A stretch of 64,000 bases of DNA, taken from a virus. Taxonomy: Duplodnaviria > Heunggongvirae > Uroviricota > Caudoviricetes. Both the position numbers and the translations under genes were made by a program. The notes beneath the pieces were generated by a model that had not been told where the DNA came from, made no database searches, and was given only the letters and a program-made list of their open reading frames with translations. The DNA lies in IMG/VR virus record IMGVR_UViG_3300030055_000004; one strand, given 5' to 3'. Of this stretch, positions 1 to 51,339 are shown piece after piece. The number at the start of each line of letters is the position of its first letter. Positions within the stretch are counted from its first letter, which is position 1.

Positions 1-995
1 ATTATTCTTTAATATGTAAATTACTTAATGTTAATATTCCCTCCATTTCAGTATATTCTTCTTTAATCATAAATTTAGAGTATATTCCTACAATATCATT
101 TTGTATATCACTATAAAGAACTACTCCTTCAAAATATTTACTAGAATCTATTTTAGTACACATTACTATAGTTCTACTTTTATTTATATATATTTTTCCT
201 TTTACCATTCTATCTGTGTATAAAATGGTTGTCTCTCTGAACCACCACAAATATTAATTTCATAATGATTTTCTAATAACTTAGTTTTTGTTATATTAGA
301 TATTATATAATTTAAATCAAGATATAATCTACCTTGATTTATCTGATTATCAATTAATTGTAAAATATAATTATATTCATTATTTAATGATTGTTTTCTT
401 GCTTCTTCTGCTACCATATTAGTATTTATTTCATAAAAAAAGGATACCATATGGCATCCTTTTTATTACATTTTTTCTTTAATCATTTTAATACATTCAT
501 CAATCTGTTTATGATTTTTTGGCATATATAAATCATAGTTCAGATTATTTTCAAATAGATATCGTTTAAATAATTTCCATCTCATAGGAAAAGCTTCATT
601 CTGCCTTCCTTTAGTTTCAATTATAAATTCTTCTCCTATGAAATCCGGGGTATATTTAACACTCTGCAAAGATTTAGATTTAGGATACATCCCATCTCCT
701 TTTCTTTTATCTGGTTCATAACTTTCTCCTATACATTTAAATGCTTCAGATATTGTAAATGTTTTTTGAGTATATTCAAACCACAATCCTGCAGCTTGTA
801 ATGCTTTATAGCAATATACTTCTAATTGAGAGTCAAATTTAATACCATCATATTCTGATTTAATTGAACTGACTTTCTTTTTTCCTCCTGATTTTTGAGG
901 AACATGTGTTTCTAATTGCTCAGGAGAAGACGCTCAGAATGGTAATTCCGCTACATCTTTCTTTTTTTTCTTTGGAAATGCCATACTATGATTAT

Positions 996-2039
996 TTATT
1001 TAAACACATAAAAGTGTTTAGTTTGTTTTATATATTCATCATCGAATATATGTTGTAATTCATCACTACACTCTAAAAAATGTGCTAGTCCTTTTTTCTT
1101 ACACATATCACTGATATCCTTTGAATATTTACGTTTAATAAATATACATTTCAATCCAGGAAATGCTTTTTTGTATTTATGTGCACCTCGTACTCCAGCT
1201 AAATCATTATCCATTAATATAAAAATATTAGGAAATTTCTTATGTAATCTATCATATTGTGCATATGACATTAATACATTTTCTGAAGTTGGTGCAATTG
1301 AGTTTATATTGAGTTCAAATAAAGACATTACATCTTTCATAGATTTAGTAATTAATAAATTATTACCTCTTACTGGTAATTGTTTAGCTCCTTGTAAAAA
1401 AGATCCTTTCCAATTACTTAAAAATCTATAAGTTCTCTTTGTTGGCATATATACTCTCCATAATTCCATTTCATCTTTTTTTCCTCCATAATACCCAAAC
1501 ATTGGAGAATTATCAGAAGAAGATGAAAAATAAAATCCATTTAAAAATGAATGTGCACAAGACACAACATGAAATTTTTTTAAAGTTTTTGGAGATATAC
1601 CAAAAGAATTCCACCAATCTAATTCTTTTTGGGTAAATTCTTTAATTGCAACTTGAATATTACTAGTTGACTGCTTTTCTGTAAATTTTATATCTGATAT
1701 TTTAATTTCAGCTATATGAGGTGTATAATTATTTGATTTAATTATCCCAAAATCATTAGCAATAATCTTTAAAGCTATATAAAAACTACAGTTAAAAAGA
1801 TACATTACTACTGAAATAAAATTACCATAAAATGATCCATCAAAATCATGAAATATTAAATCATTTTTTTGATTTCTAAAGAATGAGGCAGTTGGTAGTT
1901 TATCAGTTCTCATAGGATTTATCTGGAGTCCCTTTTTTACGGGGATTCCAAGATAAGTTTCCATATAAGTTTCTTCTGAATTATACTTTAATAAAAGTTC
2001 TTTTGTGATTCGCTCTTCGTTTTTAGGTATTTCAAACAT
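996..2039 (-). CDS. putative DNA primase (TOPRIM-like domain)
   Basis: 347 aa ORF. A C-terminal LMDNDLAGVRGA segment resembles the TOPRIM DxDxxG motif. It sits in a replication block next to the SSB-like, Sak4-like and DnaB-like genes. Confidence 0.4.
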   Translation of the reverse strand: MFEIPKNEERITKELLLKYNSEETYMETYLGIPVKKGLQINPMRTDKLPTASFFRNQKNDLIFHDFDGSFYGNFISVVMYLFNCSFYIALKIIANDFGIIKSNNYTPHIAEIKISDIKFTEKQSTSNIQVAIKEFTQKELDWWNSFGISPKTLKKFHVVSCAHSFLNGFYFSSSSDNSPMFGYYGGKKDEMELWRVYMPTKRTYRFLSNWKGSFLQGAKQLPVRGNNLLITKSMKDVMSLFELNINSIAPTSENVLMSYAQYDRLHKKFPNIFILMDNDLAGVRGAHKYKKAFPGLKCIFIKRKYSKDISDMCKKKGLAHFLECSDELQHIFDDEYIKQTKHFYVFK

Positions 2040-2056
2040 TAAATCACAATTTTATT

Positions 2057-2788
2057 TTACAATTTAAAATCCATATCAGCTTCTGATCCAGCACCTGTAC
2101 TAGGTTCACCTGCCATAGATAAATCAAATGATTCACCTATTTTAGTTGGTTTTGCACCAGCTACTTTTTTTAAAGCTGCAATTTCTTTAGCATTAAAAAA
2201 TACATTTTCTCCGATAAAATTGAATTTCATATATTTCTTACCTTCTTTATCAATTGCTGCAAAATAAGGAAAAACTGCTTCACCCTTCTTATTTACAATT
2301 AATTTCAATTTTACTTCTTTACCAATACCAGATTCAGTAGCTGCTTTCATTACATTACGTAAAGATAACCATGTAGAATGAGAATCATTACCAGTAATTT
2401 TCATTTGATTACCAGCTTCACCTTTATCAATTAATGCACCTAATTCAGGATTAACAGCATCAATTAAATGCTTAAAAATTAACATCATAGTTTCATTATT
2501 AGATAATTGAGGAACAACATTTTCTTCTCCTTTATCATTTGTAAAAGTAGTTTCTCTACGTTTACCATCTTCTTCTCTTGGTTCAAAAATTGTATGTGAA
2601 AACCAACCCTCTTTATTAGAGAATTTGATATTCAATACATTATACATTGCGGTTGGATCTTTTTTACCAGCCATATCTTTAATTTCTATTCCGTCAAATG
2701 TAACATCATAGATTGCATTTCCTTTTAGTTGTGGACGACTTGTGCTTTGAGCTGCACCGGCTGTTTCATTAAAATTAAAATCACTCAT
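2057..2788 (-). CDS. putative single-stranded DNA-binding protein
   Basis: 243 aa ORF ending in an acidic tail (...SEADMDFKL) like SSB and T7 gp2.5 C-termini. Located between the primase-like and recombinase-like genes. Confidence 0.35.
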   Translation of the reverse strand: MSDFNFNETAGAAQSTSRPQLKGNAIYDVTFDGIEIKDMAGKKDPTAMYNVLNIKFSNKEGWFSHTIFEPREEDGKRRETTFTNDKGEENVVPQLSNNETMMLIFKHLIDAVNPELGALIDKGEAGNQMKITGNDSHSTWLSLRNVMKAATESGIGKEVKLKLIVNKKGEAVFPYFAAIDKEGKKYMKFNFIGENVFFNAKEIAALKKVAGAKPTKIGESFDLSMAGEPSTGAGSEADMDFKL

Positions 2789-2804
2789 TATTTCTTATTA
2801 TTTT

Positions 2805-3350
2805 TTATAAATTAAAATCTGTAAATTCTGTCAACTCTGTTGTTTCATTTCCAGAAACTTCTATATCTCTCACTTTTGCTACGGCTTCTTTAACCGGTAT
2901 GTCTTTAGGTACATATACTTTATCACCCACTAACATATAAATTCCTGGTTTTGATTCTTCTAATGAGAATGTTTCACCAAATTCTGCTAAAATTTCATTA
3001 GCCTTGCCTCTATAGGCTACTGTACCAGCTTTAGCCAGTTTATTACCGCCTTTAATTCCGAATGCTAAGTCATTACCAAAGAATGGAGTAATTACACCAT
3101 CAACTTTATCATATCTTATAGATACTCTAATTTCATCTTCATCTCCTAAAAGTGTAATTAACTCTGGAGAAAGTACTAATTTTCCTTCTTCTCTTACTAT
3201 TGTTAAACCTGTTAATGCTTTACCAACTTGTTTAACTGTTGACTTTTTTGTAGTTGTTTTCTTTTCAACAACATCACCTACAGAACATACTACATCACAT
3301 ACGGATGTTGTTTCTGGATCGAAATTAAATGTTACTTTTACTGCTATCAT
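2805..3350 (-). CDS. hypothetical protein
   Basis: 181 aa ORF, tightly spaced inside the minus-strand operon. Confidence 0.3.
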   Translation of the reverse strand: MIAVKVTFNFDPETTSVCDVVCSVGDVVEKKTTTKKSTVKQVGKALTGLTIVREEGKLVLSPELITLLGDEDEIRVSIRYDKVDGVITPFFGNDLAFGIKGGNKLAKAGTVAYRGKANEILAEFGETFSLEESKPGIYMLVGDKVYVPKDIPVKEAVAKVRDIEVSGNETTELTEFTDFNL

Positions 3351-4099
3351 TATTCTTTATTTTGTGTTAATGAGGGATAAATATTTTCCCAGAATGTTTT
3401 AATACCTCCATCTTCTTGTCTTTGAGCAAGTAAGATAGTTTTTCCTGCAAGATGTGGCATTCTAGCACCGCATAATACAGAATTCATATCTCCAAAATTA
3501 GCCATTAAATCTGTAGTTTCTATGTCTCTATAAACATAACAAATTGCATCACTTCCAGCACTTAAAATACGACCAATTTTTCCTGTAAGATCTAAATCTT
3601 TTACATTTAATTCAGTACCATTTTCATTTAATGCTTTATCTTTAACATGCCCTACTAAAATAACATTTGGAGAGACTTTTTCAAACCAACCAATAACTCT
3701 TTGCATTGCTTGTCTTAAATACAAATAACCTGCACCATTAGCTAATGTTAATACACTTGTTTCTGCATCAAAATTAACACCCATAGAGGTTTCTCTATAT
3801 AATTTATTTGCATATGGAAGAACTATATCTTCTAATGCGGTAATAGTATCTAAAATTGTAAAATCAAATTGTCCTGGATTGTCTTTCAACTCCATTGCAA
3901 TTTTATACAAATCCATATACGTTTTAGCTTTATATGTAAAAGCTGAGATATAATCTGTCCCATCTTCAAGGTCAATATGAAGAGCTTTAGGAAGGAACGA
4001 TAATGCTGTTGTTTTTCCGACTTTTGGTAAACCAAAAAGTATTAAATTTTTTGGATTTGAAGTTTTAATTTGGCTTTTAGCCATTGGTAATAATCCCAT
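3350..4099 (-). CDS. RecA-like / Sak4-like ssDNA-annealing ATPase
   Basis: 249 aa. Walker A motif GLPKVGKTT near the N-terminus; the size matches phage Sak4-type RecA-fold proteins. Confidence 0.5.
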   Translation of the reverse strand: MGLLPMAKSQIKTSNPKNLILFGLPKVGKTTALSFLPKALHIDLEDGTDYISAFTYKAKTYMDLYKIAMELKDNPGQFDFTILDTITALEDIVLPYANKLYRETSMGVNFDAETSVLTLANGAGYLYLRQAMQRVIGWFEKVSPNVILVGHVKDKALNENGTELNVKDLDLTGKIGRILSAGSDAICYVYRDIETTDLMANFGDMNSVLCGARMPHLAGKTILLAQRQEDGGIKTFWENIYPSLTQNKE

Positions 4100-6867: not shown

Positions 6868-7851
6868 TTAAAATGTAAATAAAAATTGTTGTTTTTCTTG
6901 TACTACTTCTTGTTTTACTAATTCTTGATTCGTTAAGATATTCATTAGTTCATTTTCATTTATTTCGAAATGACTTAAACCAACTGAACTCTTTTTAAAC
7001 CAATTTTCTTCCATTGTTCCTCTTAGAATTAATGAAAATACTTCAGCATTTTTATTAGCTTCTTTTCTAATAATCCTACCAATTCTCTGTATTCTTTCAG
7101 TTGAAGAGCTACTATTAGATAAAATAATACCTAAATTTAATTTTGGAATATCCGCACCTGCATTTAATACTTTACTAGTATGAACTACTCCAGTATCTTG
7201 CAAACAAAATTCTTCCATTGTAATTTTATTCTTCTTTTTAGTTTTACCTGAATGCACTACTAAACCTACTTTAAATTTTTCACATTGTGCAATAGTTGCA
7301 TTAAATGTAATAGCTTTAGAATCAGGTCTATGTGCTAGAATTAATTCTGCAATTTCAATTTTCTTAGGATGATTTTTTACAAACTCCTTACGTGCTTTCA
7401 ATGCCCTACCCCATGCAAATGCATGAGCAGCAGTTTCAGCTATAATTTGTTTTTCAAATTTTGGATCAGGCTGAATAAATTTAGCATATGCTTTTATACA
7501 TTGTCTACTAGTTAATATTAATTCAGTACCTTTTCTAATACCAGCCATACAACCCATTGCTGTGTTGAACTGATAATCAAAAAATGCAAAATGTTCCATA
7601 AATTCTAAATTAGCTGCATTATATTCAGTTAAATCAACATCAATCATTACTTTGTATTCCTTATAAGGAGATACCCAACCTTTTGCAGTTGCTTCTTTGA
7701 CTGTAATAGTATCAATAATAGGACAATATTTAGCTAATAATGTTTGCTTACCATCTAATCTTTCAAATGTTGCTGTTAATCCTAATATCATTTTAGGTTT
7801 ACATACATCAAATATAGTATAAAATGATTCAGCAGCATACGCATGAACTTC
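6868..7851 (-). CDS. SF2 DEVH-box DNA helicase, exon 2 (C-terminal part)
   Basis: Begins EVHAYAA... (completing the DEVH motif II), then contains GLTAT (motif III) and QRIGRIIR (motif VI). Joining it to exon 1 restores ...LLILD|EVHAY.... Confidence 0.6.
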   Translation of the reverse strand, partial: EVHAYAAESFYTIFDVCKPKMILGLTATFERLDGKQTLLAKYCPIIDTITVKEATAKGWVSPYKEYKVMIDVDLTEYNAANLEFMEHFAFFDYQFNTAMGCMAGIRKGTELILTSRQCIKAYAKFIQPDPKFEKQIIAETAAHAFAWGRALKARKEFVKNHPKKIEIAELILAHRPDSKAITFNATIAQCEKFKVGLVVHSGKTKKKNKITMEEFCLQDTGVVHTSKVLNAGADIPKLNLGIILSNSSSSTERIQRIGRIIRKEANKNAEVFSLILRGTMEENWFKKSSVGLSHFEINENELMNILTNQELVKQEVVQEKQQFLFTF

Positions 7852-9149
7852 CATGCTATCCTATAATTTTCACTATAAGTCCGACTATATCTTAATTTTT
7901 GTGTTTTTTATTAAATATGTATTATTTTTTGTTTTTGTGTTATTACGAATTTGATTACTAATAGTACAATCCTTTAAATTAAAATAAAGAGCTGCTTCAA
8001 CATTAGTTTTAAATTTATTTAAAATAGACCCAATTGAATCTATTTCAAAAATTTTAAAAGTATTATCAAAATAATCAGTAAAATCTAGTATAGGACTAAG
8101 ACTCCAAAAAGAATTTTTCCACATAGTTTTATTTTTAATAGCTGTATCTAAACTACCAGCATTGGAATCTCCACTATTTAAAAATTCAGATATAACATCC
8201 CTTTTACTTAAAAATACTTTTATTAATTTAAAAGTATCTTTATTATATTGATAATGTTTAAAACCCTTACTTTCTTTAGTAGTTTTTGTAGGTATAAGTT
8301 CATAATTTTTATTTAAAAAATCAGATTCATATAACCAAAAATACCCACCAGCTGTATTTGATCTTTTTTTTAAAACATTGTTAATTGCACCGGAACTTGA
8401 AAAATTATGTTCATTAGAGGCTTTTACAATTGAATCATATGTTTTAATATAATTACCTAGTAAATCTAATTGTACAATTTTTATTTCGTGCGCAGAAATA
8501 GATCTTTGAATTCCCGAAATAACTCTTTTTTCTTTTGTAATAGATCCTCTACCACCTTTATCAATATTTAAAAGTTTATATCCTAATTCTTTATATTTTT
8601 GAATAAGGTCTATTTCTAGATTTTCCCATTCTGTAACATCGCATTCATCAATTTGTGTAATAATGACATTTTCATTTTTTAACATTAAACTGTAAATCCA
8701 TTTTGCAACAGGAGTAACCCTTTTTAAAGGATTTTTTCCAGTATATTTATGTTGTGATAATCTGCTTTTTAAAGTGCAACTTGTTACTCCAACATATCTA
8801 ACATCTTGCAAATTTGATTCACTACTTAATGTATAAAATACATATTTTTTAATTTTTTCTTGCATATTTTTAATTTTTAATAATATGCAAAGATAGCAAA
8901 AATTTTCGCCATTTCCAAATGAATTCCAAAATATTTTGAAATTTAAATGTACTCCCTTACGGGATAGTCTGTGAACCTTTTTCCAAAATTTATTTGGAAA
9001 CTTGGATGCGGATTGACCAATTCTTTTTGATTTTACCATATCTTTCATCATTACTGAAAGCCATTATATGTATTACTACTATAATTTGGTTAAAAAGACT
9101 CTAAGGTTATTCCCGCAGTTAAACGAATTTAGACTCGACAAAGTTACTA
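7852..9149 (-). mobile_element. putative group I intron carrying a GIY-YIG homing endonuclease gene
   Basis: About 1298 nt inserted exactly between the D and E codons of the helicase DEVH motif. The 5' exon ends in T (U), the insert ends in G immediately before GAA GTT CAT, and the insert encodes a GIY-YIG ORF. Removing it restores the helicase reading frame perfectly. Confidence 0.55.
7885..9051 (-). CDS. GIY-YIG homing endonuclease (intron-encoded)
   Basis: Contains KYVFYTLSSESNLQDVRYVGVTSCTLKSRLSQHK, a GIY-YIG motif. The true start is probably the internal Met at about 8865 (MQEKIKKYVFYTL), because the motif is normally N-terminal. Confidence 0.6.
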   Translation of the reverse strand: MMKDMVKSKRIGQSASKFPNKFWKKVHRLSRKGVHLNFKIFWNSFGNGENFCYLCILLKIKNMQEKIKKYVFYTLSSESNLQDVRYVGVTSCTLKSRLSQHKYTGKNPLKRVTPVAKWIYSLMLKNENVIITQIDECDVTEWENLEIDLIQKYKELGYKLLNIDKGGRGSITKEKRVISGIQRSISAHEIKIVQLDLLGNYIKTYDSIVKASNEHNFSSSGAINNVLKKRSNTAGGYFWLYESDFLNKNYELIPTKTTKESKGFKHYQYNKDTFKLIKVFLSKRDVISEFLNSGDSNAGSLDTAIKNKTMWKNSFWSLSPILDFTDYFDNTFKIFEIDSIGSILNKFKTNVEAALYFNLKDCTISNQIRNNTKTKNNTYLIKNTKIKI

Positions 9150-9446
9150 ATCGAGTATTAAGAGATCACAAAAAAAAGGTTGTTTTATTGCAGAATTAAT
9201 AATTTTAACTTCTGCATTAAAACTTAATCCTTTTTTATCTAATATAGATATCCACTGACCTCTTAAATAATCAGTAGGTACAATTACTATAATTTTTTTT
9301 CTTGGATTTTTTACAATAAATCTGTTGATAGCAATAATTGCTGCTGTAGTTTTTCCAAATCCAGTGCAAAATTCCCAGGTTCCATTACATCTATTTTTAA
9401 TCCATTTTTCTACAGCTTCTAGCTGTCTATCATCTCTACTACTCAT
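9150..9446 (-). CDS. SF2 DEVH-box DNA helicase, exon 1 (N-terminal part)
   Basis: Contains CTGFGKTTAAI (motif I, Walker A) and ends ...CDLLILD (first half of motif II), followed by a TAG that lies in the insert. Confidence 0.6.
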
Positions 9447-10161
9447 TACTTATATAATTAATTATGTTTTTAGAAAACAAAATTAATTGTTCTTCTGTTG
9501 CTGAATTTTTCATTGAATTTGCTAACATTGAAATTACTTGAACATTTCCAACAATATAACCTTTAGAATTATTAATTCTATCTAAAGAATAAGTTTTAGA
9601 ATAATCATCTTTTGTTCCTTTAATTAATTCAATTCCTAAAATTGGACAATGTGTAGGAAGTATAATATCTTCTTTTACTAAATTAAAATCTAAATTATTT
9701 TTTTTAGCTCTTTTTTTAGCAGCAGATAACATATGAGTTATTATACCATTTTCTGTATTTAAATAATCATTACTTATTTTATTTAAATAATCATTATATT
9801 CAGAATCTTCTTTTCGTTTTATATTTTTATTATCATTACATGTTTCAATATATTTTTGTCTGTTAGGATGTTCTAATACTATTTGTCTTTCACATTCTTT
9901 ACATCTTGAATATATTTTATTTTTTCCATCTTTATTTTTAGCACTTAAAATATAAAAATTTTCTAATAATAATATTTTTTTACAATTGGTACATTGTTTA
10001 TGTCCTTCTGGAATATCTACTGTTTCTTTAGGTATATATTCTCTTCCAGCTTTTTCAGCTCTTTTTTTACTTTCCTCTTTATTTTTACATTTGGAACATT
10101 TATGATTACTATAAAACTTAGTTTCTGTATCATTTTTTCCACAAATTGTGCATACTTTCAT
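9439..10161 (-). CDS. HNH homing endonuclease (free-standing)
   Basis: 240 aa. N-terminal Cys-rich zinc-finger region (CTICG...CSKCK; CTNCK), and a C-terminal HCPILGIEL...YSLDRINNSKGYIVGNVQVIS HNH_3-type motif. Confidence 0.6.
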   Translation of the reverse strand: MKVCTICGKNDTETKFYSNHKCSKCKNKEESKKRAEKAGREYIPKETVDIPEGHKQCTNCKKILLLENFYILSAKNKDGKNKIYSRCKECERQIVLEHPNRQKYIETCNDNKNIKRKEDSEYNDYLNKISNDYLNTENGIITHMLSAAKKRAKKNNLDFNLVKEDIILPTHCPILGIELIKGTKDDYSKTYSLDRINNSKGYIVGNVQVISMLANSMKNSATEEQLILFSKNIINYISNE

Positions 10162-35409: not shown

Positions 35410-35462
35410 TTTATATTTTTATTGTACCCGGGCCGAGAATCAAACTCGGATTTGAACGTTAG

Positions 35463-35535
35463 TATGCAAGCTGCGAATCGAACGCAGGACACTCGGTTTA
35501 GAAAACCGATGCTCTATCCCCTGAGCTACAAGCAC
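35463..35535 (-). tRNA. tRNA-Arg(TCT)
   Basis: Cloverleaf with D-arm GCTC/GAGC, anticodon stem TCGGT/ACCGA, loop TTTCTAA, T-arm CTGCG-TTCGATT-CGCAG. The acceptor stem has U•U at 5-68 and 6-67. Confidence 0.6.
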
Positions 35536-35538
35536 ATA

Positions 35539-36126
35539 TTACTTATCTTTAGGATAGCGAAATTCATTTCTTGCACTATTCTTATTCTTTGATTTAAATG
35601 TATCTAATTGAGAATCACAGTTAGGACAAATACACCTATAATTTTCTCTAATGTTATTTGCTGCATCTCCATCAATATGATCTAATATTAAAACTAAATG
35701 TTTATTATTCCATACAGAATCCATCCCACAAATTGCACATTTATTACCTTGTTCTTTAAGAATAAAAGGTTTTACAGTAGTAATACTATAATTACCTCTT
35801 TGATATTCTTTTGGAGAAGTAAGAAAATAATCATATAATTCTTTAGATTGAAATTCTTTTTGACATGTAATTCCACAATATTTTCTTTGAGTAGTTGTAT
35901 CTAAAGGTTTTCCACAATTTACACAAACTAAATCAGCATATTTATTTACACCTTTTCTAAATGTTTCAGATTCATTTATCTTTCTACGTTGTGGTAATTC
36001 AATTCCAAATTTTTTAGCAACTTTTCTTATATTTGAACCAGTGCAACCATAAGTTAAACCAATTGTATTATAAGGGATATTTTGTACTAAAATTAACTCC
36101 TCTAATTCTTCTTTTATATATTCCAT
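35539..36126 (-). CDS. HNH homing endonuclease
   Basis: 195 aa. C-terminal CAICG...HLVLILDHIDGDAANNIRENYRCICPNCD HNH motif with zinc-finger cysteines. Confidence 0.6.
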   Translation of the reverse strand: MEYIKEELEELILVQNIPYNTIGLTYGCTGSNIRKVAKKFGIELPQRRKINESETFRKGVNKYADLVCVNCGKPLDTTTQRKYCGITCQKEFQSKELYDYFLTSPKEYQRGNYSITTVKPFILKEQGNKCAICGMDSVWNNKHLVLILDHIDGDAANNIRENYRCICPNCDSQLDTFKSKNKNSARNEFRYPKDK

Positions 36127-36244
36127 TTTTATTAATTATTTATACTACAAAGGTACAAATAATTTTTGATATAAAATAGTTTGAATTAGTTAATTTATGT
36201 TAAAAGTGTACTGTTCTATTCAGTTGAACTATCCAGGCATTTAG

Positions 36245-36315
36245 CAAGTACACTAGGATTCGAGCCTAGATCAGGAGTTTTGGAGACTCTTATGCTACCA
36301 TTGAATCATATACCT
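36245..36315 (-). tRNA. tRNA-Trp(CCA)-like (atypical)
   Basis: Anticodon loop CTCCAAA (as in E. coli tRNA-Trp), T-arm CTAGG-CTCGAAT-CCTAG. The D-arm is weak, the anticodon stem has 4 bp plus an A:C mismatch, and the acceptor stem has two G•U pairs. Confidence 0.4.
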
Positions 36316-36318
36316 ATT

Positions 36319-36738
36319 TTAATTAATATCACATATTAAAGCTTTTCTTTTTTCACAAACTCCATAATAAAATTTAAGATTTTTTAATCCTCTCAAATAA
36401 ACATTTTGTCTTTGTGTATCATCCCAATGAATTACAATTTTTGATTTTATAGTTTTATCTGTAATCCAATAATTTGGTTTATTTTTAATATATTCAATAA
36501 AATGTTTAATACAATTTTTTGCCCATATTAAACTCTTTAATCCATCTTTTCCAGTTACTTTTAAAAATTGATAACCTTCTTTTCTTTTACCAATTTGTAA
36601 TTTAACATAATACCAATCACATTTATTAGTACTATCACATTCTAATTCTAAAAAAAGAATTTGACCTGCTTCATTTTTAGTAATATAATAATAAATATCT
36701 TTATATTTATTATTAGGTTTTAATACAATTTCATACAT
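36319..36738 (-). CDS. hypothetical protein
   Basis: 139 aa ORF between two tRNAs. Confidence 0.25.
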   Translation of the reverse strand: MYEIVLKPNNKYKDIYYYITKNEAGQILFLELECDSTNKCDWYYVKLQIGKRKEGYQFLKVTGKDGLKSLIWAKNCIKHFIEYIKNKPNYWITDKTIKSKIVIHWDDTQRQNVYLRGLKNLKFYYGVCEKRKALICDIN

Positions 36739-36752
36739 ATTATTAATTTTTG

Positions 36753-36835
36753 TACATATAGCAGGACTCGAACCTGCACGCCCCTACGAGCATCGGAGTC
36801 TAAACCCGATATGTCTACCATTCCATCATATACGC
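36753..36835 (-). tRNA. tRNA-Leu(TAG)
   Basis: Type II tRNA. Anticodon stem TCGGG/TCCGA, loop TTTAGAC, long variable arm, T-arm GCAGG-TTCGAGT-CCTGC. Confidence 0.55.
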
Positions 36836-36840
36836 ATTTG

Positions 36841-36913
36841 AGCCAAAGGTGGGGCACGATCCCACAACCCTCTCATTACAAGTGAGATACTCTACCAATT
36901 GAGCTACTTCGGC
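36841..36913 (-). tRNA. tRNA-Thr(TGT)
   Basis: Acceptor GCCGAAG/CTTTGGC, D-arm GCTC-AATTGGTA-GAGT, anticodon stem TCTCA/TGAGA, loop CTTGTAA. Confidence 0.65.
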
Positions 36914-37049
36914 AATTTTAGAGGGTCACTATTAACCTCTTTGATGTTGTTTCTTCTTATTCGTACACGTGTTTGAAATTCAGACTGGACTACATTTCTT
37001 TACCAGATAGTTTTAAATATATAAGACTAATGAAAACCTATATATCTTG

Positions 37050-37136
37050 CGGAGAGTACCGGATTCGAACCGATGTGCCCTGTTACAGGCCACTAGTTTA
37101 GCAAACTAGCACGATAAACCACTCTGCCAACTCTCC
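37050..37136 (-). tRNA. tRNA-Ser(GCT)
   Basis: Perfect acceptor GGAGAGT/ACTCTCC, anticodon stem CTAGT/ACTAG, loop TTGCTAA, long variable arm, T-arm ATCGG-TTCGAAT-CCGGT. Confidence 0.7.
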
Positions 37137-37438
37137 AATACATTACTTATGTTGCATATGATAGTGTTTAACTCTCAAATCAACTTTACTTTGTTTTAAT
37201 TTACTATTAGCAAATAAGTTATAAACAGGTTCTTCTAATATGTGATGAATAACATATATAGGAAAATTTAATATATCTATACCAATACAATATTTAACTA
37301 TCATATTTTTCTTGCAAATTTATGAATCAACCATCCAAAAACTAAAACAGCCCCTATTATAATTCCAATAATAATTCCAATTCCTATTTTAAACATTATT
37401 TTTTAATTTACGTTTTTGACCATGATATTTAATTTCAA

Positions 37439-37714
37439 TCATAAATATTCATAAGTGACCTTCTTTTTTTTTCCAATCATCTCCATATGATAAACCGCAT
37501 TAATAGGTCTATCTTCAATTATACAAACTCCATTCCCAATATAATTATACGATCTTGCATACATTTTATCATTGGTGGAATCTCTAATACATATTTCTTT
37601 ACCTTTTAAATACTGCCAATTAATTATAACATCATTACATAATTGATGAAAACTTCCTTGAACTATTTGCATATTATTTAATTTTTGGGTGAAAGGTGGG
37701 ATTCGAACCCACAT
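37439..37714 (-). CDS. hypothetical protein
   Basis: 91 aa. Its 5' end overlaps the tRNA-His 3' region. Confidence 0.2.
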   Translation of the reverse strand: MWVRIPPFTQKLNNMQIVQGSFHQLCNDVIINWQYLKGKEICIRDSTNDKMYARSYNYIGNGVCIIEDRPINAVYHMEMIGKKKKVTYEYL

Positions 37715-37775
37715 TAGTCATTACAACATTCCTGATTCACAATCAGGTCGGCATCCCTTACCGGCTACAATCACC
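37688..37775 (-). tRNA. tRNA-His(GTG) with extra G-1 and a long variable insertion
   Basis: Anticodon stem CCTGA/TCAGG, loop TTGTGAA, T-arm GTGGG-TTCGAAT-CCCAC, G-1:C73. The acceptor stem has U•U at 5-68 and 6-67. An about 19 nt insert sits in the variable region and the D-arm is weak. Confidence 0.5.
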
Positions 37776-37785
37776 ATATAAAAAG

Positions 37786-37868
37786 TGGGACATGATGGAG
37801 TCGAACCACCCGAGTCCGAAGACAACTGCTTTACAGGCAGTCCCGCTACCCCTACGGTATAACATCCC
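37786..37868 (-). tRNA. tRNA-Tyr(GTA)
   Basis: Type II tRNA. Anticodon stem CTGC/GCAG, loop CTGTAAA, variable-arm hairpin GTCTTCGGAC, T-loop TTCGACT. Confidence 0.55.
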
Positions 37869-38168
37869 ATATAATAGTCTTTCCTATCAGTCATACTTCC
37901 TTTAAATTCTGTTTAGATAATTCATCCTAACGGCAAAGCAGTATTGTATAAACCAGTATTCTTTAAAATTATGCTTGTACCGGAGTATTAGCTTCTTTAA
38001 TTTTTTCAGCAATTTTAGTATTAACTGCTTTTAAATTTGCTTGTGCTTGTTCAACTGTAACTATTTGATCATAAGCTAATGCTTTTAAATCATTTAATGA
38101 CATTGTATCAAGATTTACTTGTTGTTCATTCATTGTTTTAATTTTGACTATTATTTATCTCTTTTTAT

Positions 38169-38645
38169 TTATCTTACATTTATAATATTACTAAGTGTAC
38201 CTTTACTACTAATATTATATTTTAACATTAAATCTTTATAAGAATATCCAGAGTCACGATCAGCTTTAATTTCTATAACTAATTCATCTGAATATTTTTT
38301 ATGTGCATTAGAAGCTTTATTAATTCTTATTTCTTTAGATTGATCCATCATATTATCACTATGTGTACCTATTTTAAGATTATCCCAAGAATTATTTAAA
38401 GAATTACTATCCATATGTCGAATCATTATATTTTCTTTATAAATTTCTTCTCCAAATTTTTGATATGCTTGTAATCTATGTACTCTAACTTTAATAGTTT
38501 TACCTAGTAATTTTGTACTAATAGTTTTATAACCATTATTAATTGTGCCTAATAAAATTTTTCCAGATTTACTAATGCATGTACCATCTTTTTCAACTTT
38601 GTACCCTAAATCAAAAAGTACTTTTTCATAATATGTATATTCCAT
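38169..38645 (-). CDS. HNH (HNH_3 / AP2-type) homing endonuclease
   Basis: 158 aa. ...KVRVHRLQAYQKFG... and ...IRHMDSNSLNNSWDNLKIGTHSDN... are typical of phage HNH_3 endonucleases. Confidence 0.5.
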   Translation of the reverse strand: MEYTYYEKVLFDLGYKVEKDGTCISKSGKILLGTINNGYKTISTKLLGKTIKVRVHRLQAYQKFGEEIYKENIMIRHMDSNSLNNSWDNLKIGTHSDNMMDQSKEIRINKASNAHKKYSDELVIEIKADRDSGYSYKDLMLKYNISSKGTLSNIINVR

Positions 38646-38658
38646 ATAATAATTTAAG

Positions 38659-38741
38659 CGGAAGAAGTAGGTCCCGACCCCAAGATGTTTCCGTCCGTAC
38701 AGATTTCAAGTCTGTCTTGCTACCTAAGCAATTCATCTTCC
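38659..38741 (-). tRNA. tRNA-Ser(TGA)-like with aberrant T-arm
   Basis: Acceptor GGAAGAT, D-arm TTGC/GCAA, anticodon stem ACAGA/TCTGT, loop CTTGAAA, long variable arm. The T-arm region (GGGGTCGGGACCTAC) does not form a canonical TΨC stem-loop. Confidence 0.4.
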
Positions 38742-38820
38742 ATTAACGAGATTGCTTTGAACCTCTAAAGTCAACCTATATTGATACATATAGGATTTTA
38801 GTCTTTCTGGAGAAAGAATA

Positions 38821-39276
38821 TTATTTTTTAACTATATTTAAAATATCATAAAATTTACACCATTTTCTTATAGCATTATCTGTAACACCATAAAATTTAC
38901 CAACAGCAACAAATGAAATTAATTCTTTAAATTTAGATATAAGTTCTTCAGAAGTAGGTCTTTTACTACCATTAATTTTGTGTGAACATTCTTGAGAACA
39001 ACATTTATTTTTTCTAGATTTACCAATTAATTCTTTATTACAGTATAAGCAATATTTAGGAATAATTTCTTTAATTTCTTTAACTTTAATTTCTTTAATT
39101 ATTTCAATTGGAATAATATTTTCATTCACAATAAGACTTTCTTCTTTTTTACCTTTACCTCTATAATTATCAGTAAAAGCGTGACAATTAGGGCATAACA
39201 TTTGTAAATTTTCAATACAATGATTAGTATTTACTCCATCAATATGATGTAATTCTAAAGGAATAGGTTCTTCCAT
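38821..39276 (-). CDS. HNH endonuclease, C-terminal portion (split gene)
   Basis: Contains ELHHIDGVNTNHCIENLQMLCPNCHAF. It directly abuts the upstream ORF 39277..39606, which encodes the N-terminal part. Confidence 0.55.
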   Translation of the reverse strand: MEEPIPLELHHIDGVNTNHCIENLQMLCPNCHAFTDNYRGKGKKEESLIVNENIIPIEIIKEIKVKEIKEIIPKYCLYCNKELIGKSRKNKCCSQECSHKINGSKRPTSEELISKFKELISFVAVGKFYGVTDNAIRKWCKFYDILNIVKK

Positions 39277-39606
39277 TCATTCAGTATTATTACATTTTTC
39301 ACATCTATATTCCTTAATACCTTCTTTTAATAATCTTTTATTTAATTTTGATGTAGAAAAAGTAGAATAAGATACTAAAATTTCTTCAATTGGTTGGGCA
39401 AATTTAATTTGTGTATATCTTAATCCAACATTCCATACTTGCCCAGTAAAATGATCTGTATTTAAATCATATTCTTTAATTTTAGCATGAATTGTTTTGT
39501 AATTTCCTCCAACTGCTTTTAATCCTATTTGTCGGCATACTCCAGCAATAGATAAATTTTCTTTTACTGCAATTCTAATTTGTTCTTCTGTGTACTTAGT
39601 TCTCAT
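39277..39606 (-). CDS. HNH endonuclease N-terminal fragment (HTH-like)
   Basis: 109 aa, contiguous with 38821..39276. This is probably one endonuclease gene disrupted by a stop or frameshift. Confidence 0.35.
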   Translation of the reverse strand: MRTKYTEEQIRIAVKENLSIAGVCRQIGLKAVGGNYKTIHAKIKEYDLNTDHFTGQVWNVGLRYTQIKFAQPIEEILVSYSTFSTSKLNKRLLKEGIKEYRCEKCNNTE

Positions 39607-39688
39607 TTTTATAATTATTTAATACACAAAGGTACTAAATAATTTTGAGTCTACCAAATCGAATTATGTTAAAATATATTAAAAATAG

Positions 39689-39770
39689 TACCCGTAGCAG
39701 GAGTCCAACCTGCACGCTTTTAGGCGCTCCCGCTTAAAAGGAGTGTGTCTAGCATTTCACCATACGGGTA
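39689..39770 (-). tRNA. tRNA-Leu(TAA)
   Basis: Type II tRNA. Perfect acceptor ACCCGTA/TACGGGT, anticodon stem CTCCT/GGGAG, loop TTTAAGC, T-arm GCAGG-TTGGACT-CCTGC. Confidence 0.6.
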
Positions 39771-39823
39771 TTAATTGATTATTTTATATATAATCATAGT
39801 TTTAAGAACCATTCGTTCTTTGT

Positions 39824-39894
39824 TGTCCCATCTAGATTCGAACTAGAGCTATTTGAGTCAAAGTCAAATGTGTTAGACCACTACACTATGGAAC
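39824..39894 (-). tRNA. tRNA-Gln(TTG)
   Basis: Acceptor GTTCCAT/ATGGGAC, anticodon stem TTTGA/TCAAA, loop CTTTGAC, T-arm TCTAG-TTCGAAT-CTAGA. Confidence 0.65.
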
Positions 39895-40162
39895 AATATT
39901 ATTTTTCTATGCAGTAAGTGCTTAGACTTGCCTATCATACCTATCAGAATCATTTAATCTGGCACTAATCTTGGTTAGAAAAATTTAATTTAAAGGTACT
40001 GAATATCTTAACCCACCAGTACAGTCTCAATTCAATTGTATCGCTGTATACGAATACCTTCATGAGGATGGAAGAATTGCTCACACGTTACCTTTATATT
40101 GTAAGAATATCATCATTAGAAATACAATAAATTGTATTTCATCACACTACTATATTCTTGAG

Positions 40163-40233
40163 CGGGAAGTGTAGGAATCGAACCTACGCCTATTGATTAA
40201 CAGTCAACTGCTCGACCTTCGAGCTAACAACCC
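40163..40233 (-). tRNA. tRNA-Asn(GTT)
   Basis: D-arm GCTC/GAGC, anticodon loop CTGTTAA, T-arm GTAGG-TTCGATT-CCTAC. The acceptor stem has U•U at 4-69 and 5-68. Confidence 0.55.
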
Positions 40234-40356
40234 AGTTTATAATTTTTGCTTACCATCGCTTCACTGTTAAAATTACAAAAATACATCAGTTACCATTATC
40301 GTTGTTTCTGCATCAACGCTTCATCCGAAGAGGTCTATAGTCGGTTACTATAACTG

Positions 40357-40430
40357 AGCGATAAGTGGGTCTCCAACCCACAACCTCCGACTTGGAAGGA
40401 CGGCACTCTAAGCAATTGAGCTATTATCGC
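40357..40430 (-). tRNA. tRNA-Gly(TCC)
   Basis: Perfect acceptor GCGATAA/TTATCGC. Anticodon loop CTTCCAA with one U•U in the anticodon stem. The T-loop TTGGAGA lacks the conserved C56. Confidence 0.5.
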
Positions 40431-40543
40431 ATTTTAATTTAATACTATATCAGGGGTTTTCTATTGTACATTTAGCGAGCTCCCTTATACACATCATGAC
40501 TAAATTCATGTTATTTCCATTTTACAGAAACTATAATATTAAA

Positions 40544-40867
40544 TTATTTTATTAGTTGTAATCTATCAAAGATTAAACCATTATTTTCTATTGCTATGGC
40601 TGTAATTGTGCCACATAAATCTGGTTCATGAAATTCAGAAAATGTATATCCATTGTTTGCTAACTTTGGAATCCATTCATCTAAATTTGCTGATAAAAAG
40701 AATAAATAGTTGTTATTCCATTCTTGTGTTTCTTTATTATCAAGGAGGAATTGTGCTACTGCATGTGCTCCTTGGACACATCCATATACGCTATTTAATC
40801 TATTATTAATTAATACGTATAGTTTTCTTTCTTCTACTTGTTCCATTATTATTATTATTTTGTGCAC
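40544..40867 (-). CDS. peptidyl-tRNA hydrolase, PTH2 family
   Basis: 107 aa. KLYVLINNRLNSVYGCVQGAHAVAQF aligns with the PTH2 core K.[24 protein letters not shown]. A downstream ...GTITAIAIENNGL segment is also conserved. Confidence 0.5.
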   Translation of the reverse strand: MHKIIIIMEQVEERKLYVLINNRLNSVYGCVQGAHAVAQFLLDNKETQEWNNNYLFFLSANLDEWIPKLANNGYTFSEFHEPDLCGTITAIAIENNGLIFDRLQLIK

Positions 40868-40935
40868 CGCCCCAGACTTGAACTGGGAACCTATCGGTTA
40901 AAAGCCGAGAGCTCTACATTGGAGCTAGCGGTGCG
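40863..40935 (-). tRNA. tRNA-Lys(TTT)
   Basis: Perfect acceptor GCACCGC/GCGGTGC, D-arm GCTC/GAGC, anticodon loop CTTTTAA, T-arm CCCAG-TTCAAGT-CTGGG. Confidence 0.7.
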
Positions 40936-41095
40936 AGTTTGTTGGAATAGGCAAATCACCAACTATGATACATGCATTGAAAAGAATCACTTTTACTAAT
41001 TGTATCTTTCACATAAAAGTAGATAATGTGATTAGCATTAAACGTACTTTTTCTATACTAAGTGATGTAGCAGAGCAGTTTATTAAACTGTTGTG

Positions 41096-41167
41096 TGAGC
41101 CTAATAGGAGTCGAACCTATATCCCAGGATTCGTAATCCTGTGTTCTATCCATTGAACTATAAGCTC
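41096..41167 (-). tRNA. tRNA-Arg(ACG)
   Basis: D-arm GTTC/GAAC, anticodon stem CAGGA/TCCTG, loop TTACGAA, T-arm ATAGG-TTCGACT-CCTAT. Confidence 0.65.
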
Positions 41168-41177
41168 TCATTAATTG

Positions 41178-41250
41178 TGACCTCTGCTGGATTTGAACCA
41201 GCGACACCTAGATCTTCAATCTAGTGCTCTACCAACTGAGCTAAGAGGTC
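41178..41250 (-). tRNA. tRNA-Phe(GAA)
   Basis: Perfect acceptor GACCTCT/AGAGGTC, anticodon stem CTAGA/TCTAG, loop TTGAAGA, T-arm GCTGG-TTCAAAT-CCAGC. Confidence 0.75.
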
Positions 41251-41296
41251 AAGCAAGATTTTTACTTCTAGGAAGAAATACCTTGAAAAAGAACCG

Positions 41297-41367
41297 TTGC
41301 GATATCAAGAATTGAACTTGAATCAAATGGATATGAGCCAAACATTCTACCATTGAACTATATCACA
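41297..41367 (-). tRNA. tRNA-Met/Ile2(CAT)
   Basis: Anticodon loop CTCATAT on a weak stem, D-arm GTTC/GAAC, T-arm TCAAG-TTCAATT-CTTGA, acceptor TGTGATA/TATCGCA. Confidence 0.5.
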
Positions 41368-41368
41368 G

Positions 41369-41442
41369 TGGGGAAAATAGGACTTGAACCTATGACCTCC
41401 CGGGTATCAGCCGGACGCTCTAACCAACTGAGCTATATCCCC
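41369..41442 (-). tRNA. tRNA-Ile(GAT)
   Basis: D-arm GCTC-AGTTGGTTA-GAGC, anticodon stem TCCGG/CCGGG, loop CTGATAC, T-arm ATAGG-TTCAAGT-CCTAT. Confidence 0.65.
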
Positions 41443-41732
41443 ATTATTTTTCTAAATATTGGAATATAAAAATCTATGGATTGTATATCTTTTCTATGAA
41501 TAGATACTTTATAATTATCATATCTTTTAGATGTATTAGGTTGTCCAATTGGATCTTTCCATATTCTAAAATCTTTCATTACAAAATTTATGTATTCTCC
41601 TTCAAATACAACATCTATTGGATAATGATAATACTCATTCATACCACTAGGTTTTAATTTATGTAGTATAATCCAACAAATTCTTTTATTACTTAATAAT
41701 CTTGGTAAACTTTTAAAAACTTTTCTTGTCAT
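41433..41732 (-). CDS. hypothetical protein
   Basis: 99 aa ORF inside the tRNA island. Confidence 0.2.
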   Translation of the reverse strand: MTRKVFKSLPRLLSNKRICWIILHKLKPSGMNEYYHYPIDVVFEGEYINFVMKDFRIWKDPIGQPNTSKRYDNYKVSIHRKDIQSIDFYIPIFRKIMGI

Positions 41733-41779
41733 TTGGATGTATTTTATTAATTAATACTGTCCGCCATTTTAATAATTTG

Positions 41780-41854
41780 AGCTCATACTCCGATTTGAAC
41801 GGAGGAAATATTGGTTTTGCAGACCAACGCGTTAGACCACTTCGCCATATGAGC
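41780..41854 (-). tRNA. tRNA-Cys(GCA)
   Basis: Perfect acceptor GCTCATA/TATGAGC, anticodon stem TTGGT/ACCAA, loop CTGCAAA, T-arm CTCCG-TTCAAAT-CGGAG. Confidence 0.7.
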
Positions 41855-42017
41855 ATTTAAAAATTCAGTTCTTGCATAAGAAATAATAAACGTTAATTAG
41901 TTTTTTGTACGGGAGTTACACCTATTTATTATATTTACACAAACTAACTTATGCCTAAGTAAATAGCCCACTATATACGCTTCCACTATTTGTTTGCTTC
42001 AATCTGAATTTTATTGT

Positions 42018-42149
42018 TGCGAGCGCCGGATTCGAACCGTGTCTCGGGGTTATAGCTTTATTCTATTCTAAAATAAATTTTAGTTTGAACATTTCACAGA
42101 CTTTTAAACCTGTATGAGCCCAGTGAGCTACCATTGCTCCACCCTCGCA
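42018..42149 (-). tRNA. tRNA-like gene interrupted by an about 60-nt AT-rich insertion (CAT anticodon loop; possible intron or pseudogene)
   Basis: The 5' half (GCGAGGG-TG-GAGC-AATGGTA-GCTC-A-CTGGG-CTCATAC) stops after the anticodon loop. An insert of about 62 nt follows. The 3' half has a T-loop GGTTCGAATCC and acceptor CGCTCGC, which pairs with the 5' end at 6 of 7 positions. Confidence 0.4.
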
Positions 42150-42163
42150 TCTGTTATATTTTG

Positions 42164-42236
42164 TATAAGCGGTGAGACTCGAACTCACGACCACATGCTC
42201 CCAAAGCATGCATTCTACCAACTGAAATACGCCTAT
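42164..42236 (-). tRNA. tRNA-Pro(TGG)
   Basis: Acceptor ATAGGCG/CGCTTAT, anticodon stem CATGC/GCATG, loop TTTGGGA, T-arm GTGAG-TTCGAGT-CTCAC. Confidence 0.65.
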
Positions 42237-42343
42237 ATTTAATTAGAAATCCAATTTTTCAGGATCTTTGAAAGATAAAAACTCATTTGCGAATAATAAT
42301 CCGTTCTTTAAATAAATATCTTGTTTCATATCTAAATCATTTG

Positions 42344-42416
42344 CAGTACTGATGGGAATCAAACCCACTAAATCTCGATAGACAGTCGAGTGCACCAATC
42401 GTTATGCGCCAGTACT
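42344..42416 (-). tRNA. tRNA-Asp(GTC)
   Basis: Perfect acceptor AGTACTG/CAGTACT, anticodon stem CTCGA/TCGAG, loop CTGTCTA (position 37 is U, which is unusual), T-arm GTGGG-TTTGATT-CCCAT. Confidence 0.55.
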
Positions 42417-42423
42417 ATTTTTG

Positions 42424-42496
42424 TAATCGGTATCGGATTCAAACCGATGTTACTTCATAGAAGGTGAAGTGTGCTAGGTCACTGCACTAACCGATC
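42424..42496 (-). tRNA. tRNA-Glu(TTC)
   Basis: D-arm GTGC/GCAC, anticodon stem CTTCA/TGAAG, loop CCTTCTA (C33 and U37 are atypical), T-arm ATCGG-TTTGAAT-CCGAT. Confidence 0.55.
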
Positions 42497-51235: not shown

Positions 51236-51261
51236 AATAATTTATTTTATGTTATTAATTG

Positions 51262-51339
51262 TGGTATTAGAAAGATTCGAACCTTCAACCTCGTACCTTG
51301 CGGGTTTAACGTGCTCTAACCAATTGAGCTATAATACCA
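51262..51339 (-). ncRNA. tRNA-like RNA lacking an anticodon arm
   Basis: Perfect acceptor GGTATTA/TAATACC, D-arm GCTC-AATTGGTTA-GAGC, T-arm GAAGG-TTCGAAT-CTTTC. The anticodon arm is replaced by CGT-TAAAC-CC-GCAA-GG-T-ACG, a GNRA-capped mini-hairpin. Total length 78 nt. Confidence 0.5.

Follow-up and report, generated by a model that had tools for sequence, protein, structure and literature searches.

A probable mobile group I intron with a GIY-YIG endonuclease gene divides the DEVH motif of a helicase in an uncultivated phage

In phages, group I introns show a preference for conserved protein-coding genes, among them those for polymerases, ribonucleotide reductases, and terminases (PMC3984707), and they are already on record in phage helicase and other replication genes, including the helicase genes of Romulus, Remus, and other Staphylococcus Twort-like phages (PMC5526547); many also lie in core genes of uncultivated crAss-like phages of Bacteroidota (PMC7886860). 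Here we describe a 1,298-nt insert in a helicase gene of IMG/VR virus record IMGVR_UViG_3300030055_000004, a Caudoviricetes sequence of 64,000 nt that we refer to in its entirety as the window. From its anatomy and from comparison with its relatives we infer splicing and homing, and the insert is very probably a functional mobile group I intron, placed between the D and the E of the DEVH motif of a superfamily 2 (SF2) helicase in the replication block. The general situation is that of the T4 td intron and I-TevI, a group IA2 intron with a GIY-YIG endonuclease in a phage DNA-metabolism gene, although the host gene is thymidylate synthase for td and an SF2 helicase here. The open reading frame (ORF) of the td intron lies in P6, whereas that of the window intron lies in the P8 loop; the window intron further differs in the absence of P2, a large P5 extension, and the NUMOD-type DNA-binding region of its endonuclease, which has no detectable sequence similarity to I-TevI. 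The window helicase family is unrelated to the helicases of the Twort-like phages, and the window phage is uncultivated; an insertion between the D and E of a DExH motif is not described in PMC5526547 or PMC7886860.

The features of this locus all lie on the minus strand. Helicase exon 1 (9150..9446; 99 codons), recognized from the ORF list, the sequence, and Pfam, carries motif I (TGFGKT) and ends in ...LLILD with U as its last base, and exon 2 (6868..7851; 327 codons plus stop) supplies the EVH of motif II, GLTAT (motif III), and QRIGRIIR (motif VI), just as the first-pass annotation of this DNA had read them. At the end of exon 1, CTC GAT (LD) is followed with no spacing by TAG TAA, and from position 7851 the helicase resumes with GAA GTT CAT (EVH); the ORF as called (7854..6868) reads M-EVHAYAA..., its ATG being the final three bases of the insert. 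Pfam profiles divide at the same place: exon 1 matches ResIII positions 6-74 of a 164-position profile, together with DEAD, and exon 2 matches ResIII positions 133-164, the last 32, at its very start, followed by Helicase_C and ERCC3_RAD25_C. The 99-residue product of exon 1 would hold motifs I and Ia only, and a complete DEVH exists in the helicase only after the exons are joined. The joined protein is a 426-amino-acid SF2 helicase of the DExH, ResIII/ERCC3-like kind, with TGFGKT, DEVH, GLTAT, and QRIGRIIR in order and two RecA-like domains, and it matches PHROG 16 (DNA helicase) with an E value of 4.6e-34.

The joined protein has more than 1000 database matches, mostly uninterrupted and about 410-435 amino acids long, and its junction is gap-free when aligned with uninterrupted homologues of up to 89% identity (...LILDEVHAYAAESF...), which bears out the earlier claim that removing the insert would yield DEVH. 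Two such homologues are P0001 (89% identical; junction FLILDEVHAYAAESF) and P0002 (77% identical over its full length; junction FLILDEVHMYAAESF). At the DNA level, intron-less helicase alleles read GAT/GAA at the insertion point (marked here by a slash). The closest, L001, has TTAATACTAGAT/GAAGTACATGCGTATGCTGCTGAA where the window exons have TTAATACTCGAT/GAAGTTCATGCGTATGCTGCTGAA, and it differs from the ligated window exons at two of 36 bases around the site; the expected ligated junction in the window is ...CTCGAT/GAAGTTCAT..., or in a longer form ...TTAATACTCGAT/GAAGTTCATGCG.... Comparison with homologues places both exons under clear purifying selection. At least 24 contigs, drawn from several samples and reaching 168 kb in length, show the same three ORFs in this order, which excludes an assembly artefact; samples containing the phage include ERZ27249832, JGI 3300028864, and JGI 3300030230. 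Among phage helicases in GenBank the nearest belong to uncultured gut phages (41-44% identity) and to Cellulophaga phage phi14:2 (26%); the closest, at 44%, is unannotated. Reassignment of stop codons, as a way of reading through the end of exon 1, was rejected because a second stop codon, TAA, comes after the TAG and the window has no suppressor tRNA gene.

The insert occupies 7852..9149, beginning directly after the U of exon 1 with UAGUAA, two in-frame stop codons, and ending in ...AGCAUG with its terminal G at 7852; its length and both ends are those first described. A 12-nt internal guide, AACUUU-GUCGAG (9134..9145), is identified from the sequence, from shuffling, and from co-variation of P10. 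P1 consists of GUCGAG from this guide (9139..9134) and the last bases of exon 1, CUCGAU (9155..9150), and has U.G at the 5' splice site; the adjoining P10 consists of the guide bases AACUUU (9145..9140) and GAAGUU, with which exon 2 opens (7851..7846). Thus 12 consecutive guide bases pair with the ligated junction, with wobbles at both junction positions; when the first 60 bases of the intron were shuffled 20,000 times, only 15 shuffles reached 12 of 12. The pairing with the end of exon 1 that had been proposed therefore holds, over the last six bases and through the U.G, and it is joined by the pairing with the first six bases of exon 2.

A complete P3-P9 core can be drawn around the ORF. P3 is formed by UUCGUU (9127..9122) and GGCGAA (8910..8905), P4 by 9117..9112 with 9012..9007 (UGCGGG with UCCGCA), P5 and its three-way P5a/b/c extension by 9107..9010, and P6/P6a by 9005..8976. 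The 5' strand of P7, CAGACUA with a bulged A (8971..8965), pairs with UAGUCG (7887..7882), and the helix has the G-C pair that, together with the bulged A, is typical of guanosine sites. P7.1 (UCCC-GUAA-GGGA, 8964..8953) and the 9-bp P7.2 (8943..8922) follow, and the 5' strand of P8 (AAUUUUUG, 8904..8897) pairs with CAAAAAUU (7901..7894), closing around the endonuclease ORF and thereby placing it in the P8 loop. Beyond this lie J8/7 (AAGAUA, 7893..7888), the P9 hairpin with its GAAA loop (7879..7860), and the 3' tail AUAGCAUG, which ends in the terminal G at 7852. GNRA loops cap both P7.1 and P9, and the core elements J8/7-P7 (AAGAUAUAGUC) and P4/P6 (UGCGGG...AAUCCGCA) are present and align with the consensus of RF00028. 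When the ORF-deleted intron is folded by energy without constraints, P1, P3, P4, P5, P5a-c, P6a, P7.1, P7.2, P8, and P9 are recovered (z = -2.96) and the pseudoknotted P7 is missed. On the predicted P7.1 and P7.2, which lie between the 5' strand of P7 and the 3' strand of P3 and define the subgroup (PMC3984707), the insert is assigned to subgroup IA; we claim no sub-subgroup (IA1, IA2, or IA3), because P2 is absent. A regular-expression search of the window for core motifs found no second place that combines them.

Comparison with related introns strengthens this architecture. The nearest relatives of the core at the DNA level lie in the gaps of split DNA polymerase genes, in Vibrio phage Va1 and in the crAss-like phages cr127_1 and cr271_1, with 67-75% identity over 120-230 nt. 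The P5a/b/c extension is common to the introns of the window, cr127_1, cr271_1, and Va1, and P7.1/P7.2 are shared with cr127_1 and cr271_1, although these introns occupy another host gene and another insertion site than that of the window. The gaps in cr127_1 and cr271_1 are without an annotated ORF, whereas Va1 has a MobE-type endonuclease 5' of the core. More widely, a search for the P4-P5 motif (TGCGGGRANNNCCTTAGAG) matched more than 120 viral contigs; the group I introns collected in this way were of mixed types, and the P7.1-type subset alone was usable for covariation analysis.

For that analysis we aligned the window intron, with the interior of L8 removed, and ten P7.1-type relatives (11 sequences) with MAFFT, and tested a structure of 74 pairs in 13 helices, which includes the P3/P7 pseudoknot and leaves out P7.2. 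Standard base pairs fill 92.1% of the cells, against 36-45% when partners are slid by 1-3 columns, and the covariation score is 0.59, against 0.08-0.13 in the slid controls; in 500 shuffles, values as high as these never arose. Compensatory changes on both sides are seen in 51 of the 74 pairs, among them five of six in P3, six of eight in P6a, and all pairs of P5a, P5b, P8, and P9. All eight P8 pairs are thus compensatory, and P8 is also seen by eye in L228 and L234. P7.1 is paired in 77.5% of its cells, with double changes in three of its four pairs. P4 and most of P7 are invariant across the set, and J8/7-P7 (AAGAUAUAGUC) is identical in all 11 introns. An effect this large, seen over this many pair types, makes it very unlikely that the predicted pairing arose by chance.

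The Rfam family Intron_gpI (RF00028), named beforehand as the one to expect, was found in part. A permissive scan of the region gave two matches, one at 9117..8965 to model positions 60-148 (P4-P6 and the 5' strand of P7; 26.2 bits, E 3e-4) and one at 7895..7863 to positions 219-251 (J8/7, the 3' strand of P7, and P9; 21.1 bits, E 0.011), on the correct strand, collinear, and on either side of the ORF; a permissive scan of the whole window missed the intron, so the partial matches come from the region-restricted scan only.

Searches with the helicase and with the endonuclease identified five further lineages (L228, L247, L248, L249, and L250/L251) that carry a homologous intron with a homologous endonuclease exactly between D and E, in helicases only 47-58% identical. 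The P10 guide co-varies with the exon-2 codons in the same-site introns of L228, L248, and L250: where the window pairs AACUUU with GAAGUU (EV), L228 pairs ACAUUU with GAAUGU (EC), L248 pairs GUACUUU with GAAGUAC (EVH), and L250 pairs AAUUUU with GAAGUU (EV). The guide of L249 is UACUU, opposite GAGUG (EC), and the P10 pairing of L247 is weaker. Five of the six intron-bearing alleles end exon 1 in AUACUCGAU (L250 has AUAAUCGAU), whereas intron-less alleles use many different Leu/Ile codons at this position; a uniform exon-1 end in intron-bearing alleles is expected from a constraint imposed by P1 or from co-conversion during homing.

The endonuclease gene of the insert (7885..8865; 326 codons plus stop) encodes a GIY-YIG catalytic domain and NUMOD-type DNA-binding modules. 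Its homologues begin at Met 8865 and not at the 9051 ATG of the 388-amino-acid ORF proposed by gene callers. The first-pass identification of a GIY-YIG endonuclease is upheld by alignment with homologues and by fold comparison, which confirms the GIY-YIG fold, although Pfam gives no such match: PF01541 is not found in the window protein even at E ≤ 10, and a sub-threshold NUMOD1 match is all that Pfam returns. PF01541 does match six of 18 homologues, with a best E of 3.8e-10; two of these six share 53-55% identity with the window protein, and Y11, Y24-x-G26, R35, H39, E84, and N100 are invariant across the 18. The ORF is a divergent GIY-YIG endonuclease missed by Pfam; a PHROGs search with it likewise found no family match. 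The intron-less allele of L001, TTAATACTAGAT/GAAGTACATGCG, is a candidate target for the enzyme.

Two side observations concern these endonuclease genes. In L228 (7380-8655) and L247-L251 they contain in-frame TGA codons aligned with Trp of the window protein, and standard-code translation does not give the query protein; these phages appear to read TGA as Trp, whereas the window gene uses TGG and the window encodes no suppressor tRNA. Separately, the conserved sequence UAUCUUUG (TAnnTTTG) lies at 8888-8895 of the window (minus strand), downstream of the 5' strand of P8, and also in L228, L234, L002, and L198; in several independent introns it is found ~20-30 nt upstream of the endonuclease start codon, and in the window a TTTG lies 20 nt further upstream. 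The Bacteroidota -33/-7 promoter consensus is TTTG-N17-21-TAnnTTTG, which UAUCUUUG with its upstream TTTG matches, so that it might be a promoter of this type; the combined motif is not enriched across the window (seven found, 4.7 expected).

If the intron acts as its anatomy suggests, the guide GUCGAG would pair with CUCGAU at the end of exon 1 in the pre-mRNA, forming P1 with U.G at the splice site, and free guanosine bound in P7 would attack after the splice-site U. The guide AACUUU would then hold the exon-2 start GAAGUU in P10, the terminal G would enter the G site, and the exons would be ligated to ...CUC GAU GAA GUU CAU..., restoring a single 426-amino-acid helicase. Ribosomes that translate exon 1 on unspliced RNA would terminate on entering the intron, whose first two codons are UAG UAA. 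By analogy with I-TevI, the endonuclease would act on co-infecting relatives whose helicase alleles lack the intron, cutting these alleles near the sequence that encodes DEVH, and the intron would spread when the break is repaired from the copy that contains it.

Several observations weigh against a functional group I intron. No Rfam match in the region attains the gathering score of 50 bits, both partial matches falling below it owing to the 1-kb ORF in the P8 loop, and the ORF-less relatives in cr127_1 and cr271_1 give no Rfam match at E ≤ 0.05; with no single match at the gathering score, the family assignment rests on the structure and covariation presented here. The covariation alignment is itself sequence-based and its structure was taken from the window sequence, which favors the unshifted register. 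P2 is missing, and P5 itself has no more than 3 bp. The endonuclease stop codon UAG (7887..7885) forms the first three bases of the 3' strand of P7, and the last codons span the 3' strand of P8 and J8/7, so that translation could compete with folding. In L249 (1560-1610), with the D/E junction kept, the intron ends in A (...GGCAUUA/GAGUGCC) and not G. Lastly, a scan of metagenome contigs for the ligated junction, whether as spliced cDNA or as an intron-less twin, found the intron-less L001 only. With regard to L249, moving both splice sites by one base returns the terminal G but replaces U.G by G.U at the 5' splice site, and its endonuclease is truncated (278 amino acids); L249 could be a decaying copy or an assembly error.

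Some of these points would fit a decayed group I intron that no longer splices, leaving the helicase a pseudogene or one rescued only by a protein cofactor: the low Rfam scores, the short P5 and missing P2, and in addition a very AT-rich sequence (28% G+C in the core). We regard this as very unlikely, since all core elements are intact and fit the family consensus, including AAGAUAUAGUC, the bulged A and G-C pair of P7, and the GNRA loops; the U.G at the 5' splice site and the terminal G are both present, both exons show clear purifying selection, and the identical arrangement recurs on many contigs from several samples.

The alternative raised with the first-pass annotation was a gene in pieces, in which a free-standing endonuclease gene has been inserted and the two halves are translated separately into a two-subunit enzyme, with no RNA splicing. 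The phage Aeh1 offers a parallel, its nrdA reportedly being split by mobE into halves that assemble into an active enzyme. Public gene calls do present the helicase locus as three separate ORFs, an AUG with AGGA a few bases upstream directly precedes exon 2 in the window, and the scan gave no spliced transcript. However, the split falls inside the DEVH catalytic motif and would leave a 99-residue piece with motifs I and Ia only, and the AUG before exon 2 consists of intron bases and is absent in L228, L247, L248, and L250, which argues against separate translation of a C-terminal fragment. Moreover, the non-coding sequences on either side of the ORF make up a group I core that is conserved and covaries, and a gene in pieces leaves the co-variation between guide and exon 2 unexplained. 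We consider this alternative highly improbable.

An intein or a group II intron, elements that are likewise known from catalytic motifs of phage replication genes (PMC7886860, PMC12350094), is already refuted at the level of sequence by the TAG TAA directly after exon 1, by an insert ORF with its own start in which Pfam shows NUMOD-type domains only and neither Hint nor reverse transcriptase, and by the lack of any Rfam group II match. The group I assignment of the first-pass annotation is thus favored by the Rfam pieces, the guide, and the covarying P3-P9 core alike.

We also considered whether the group I intron could act as a switch that ties production of the helicase to expression of the endonuclease, possibly as a weapon against intron-less co-infecting relatives. 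With the endonuclease ORF ending inside the catalytic core, a given transcript would either be translated into the endonuclease or fold into the ribozyme, never both. We think such a role doubtful; if it were true, the intron would be more than a neutral parasite.

Insertions are found elsewhere in this helicase family, with four sites across phages (motif I, motif II, motif VI, and the C-terminus) and up to three insertions per gene. Relatives are interrupted at motif I between G and K (GVG/KT) in L002 (3575-4787), L163/L164 (ends near 3505), and L247 (1-122), and near the C-terminus after the W of ...EENW/F in L001 (5159-6291). Insertions at both of these sites carry a GIY-YIG gene, and their last ~250 nt form a conserved, covarying RNA, with compensatory changes in 21 of 65 predicted pairs among four sequences; the RNA has no Rfam match even at E 10, and its layout is group I-like with a variant P7 (GCGUA with UACGC). 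In L002 and L001 the 5' exon ends in UUGGU and the insert ends in G, and the RNA may represent a divergent group I family that has moved between two sites sharing UUGGU. The motif VI site (QRIG/R, residues 356/357) is occupied in L228 (5344-6586), L198 (1655-2942), L199, L214, L154 (3826-4342), L247, and L249, and these inserts have clear group I hallmarks (AGAGACUAAAUGCAGG...GAUGAAGAUAUAGUCC). L228 and L249 have introns at both motifs II and VI, and L247 has insertions at motifs I, II, and VI. In other genes, complete ORF-less group I introns lie at 8294-8548 of L001 and 9609-9831 of L002, above the Rfam threshold (74.9 and 115.4 bits, respectively), and the DNA polymerase A gene of L001 is split around a LAGLIDADG ORF (781-3887).

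In the window the neighboring genes are PolA, the interrupted SF2 helicase, DnaB, an AAA_24 ATPase, a Toprim primase, and Thy1, which resemble the crAss-like replication block described in PMC7886860. Between the DNA polymerase gene and helicase exon 1 is a free-standing gene for a Cys-rich endonuclease of 240 amino acids (9439-10161, minus strand), the end of which overlaps the helicase start codon; it matches PHROG "endonuclease" and "endonuclease VII" (E ~1e-27) and also HNH-type families, and Pfam gives it no match. Farther away, a full-length tmRNA gene at 54594-55013 (minus strand; Rfam RF00023, 75.5 bits, E 1.6e-27) was not called by ARAGORN, which finds 20 tRNA genes for 18 amino acids, with no suppressor tRNA, at 35462-42496 and 51261-51338 (minus strand). 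One more tRNA, at 42344-42416, comes from Rfam (43 bits), as does a tRNA-like match of 131 nt at 42018-42148, which falls below threshold and may contain an insertion.

As selfish elements go, the window element is well formed but ordinary and of a known kind, and it leaves the current understanding of group I introns unchanged. It does illustrate that the Rfam gathering threshold misses endonuclease-bearing phage introns of this type as well as their ORF-less crAss-like relatives. Once the intron is recognized, a single replication helicase of 426 amino acids is restored in this uncultivated phage, whose genome is at least 168 kb, and the locus provides a clean natural case of a homing element at the most conserved codons of an enzyme, with a guide that tracks both synonymous and non-synonymous changes in the exon. 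A helicase family invaded at several sites is also a useful data set for how introns choose their sites and move between them.

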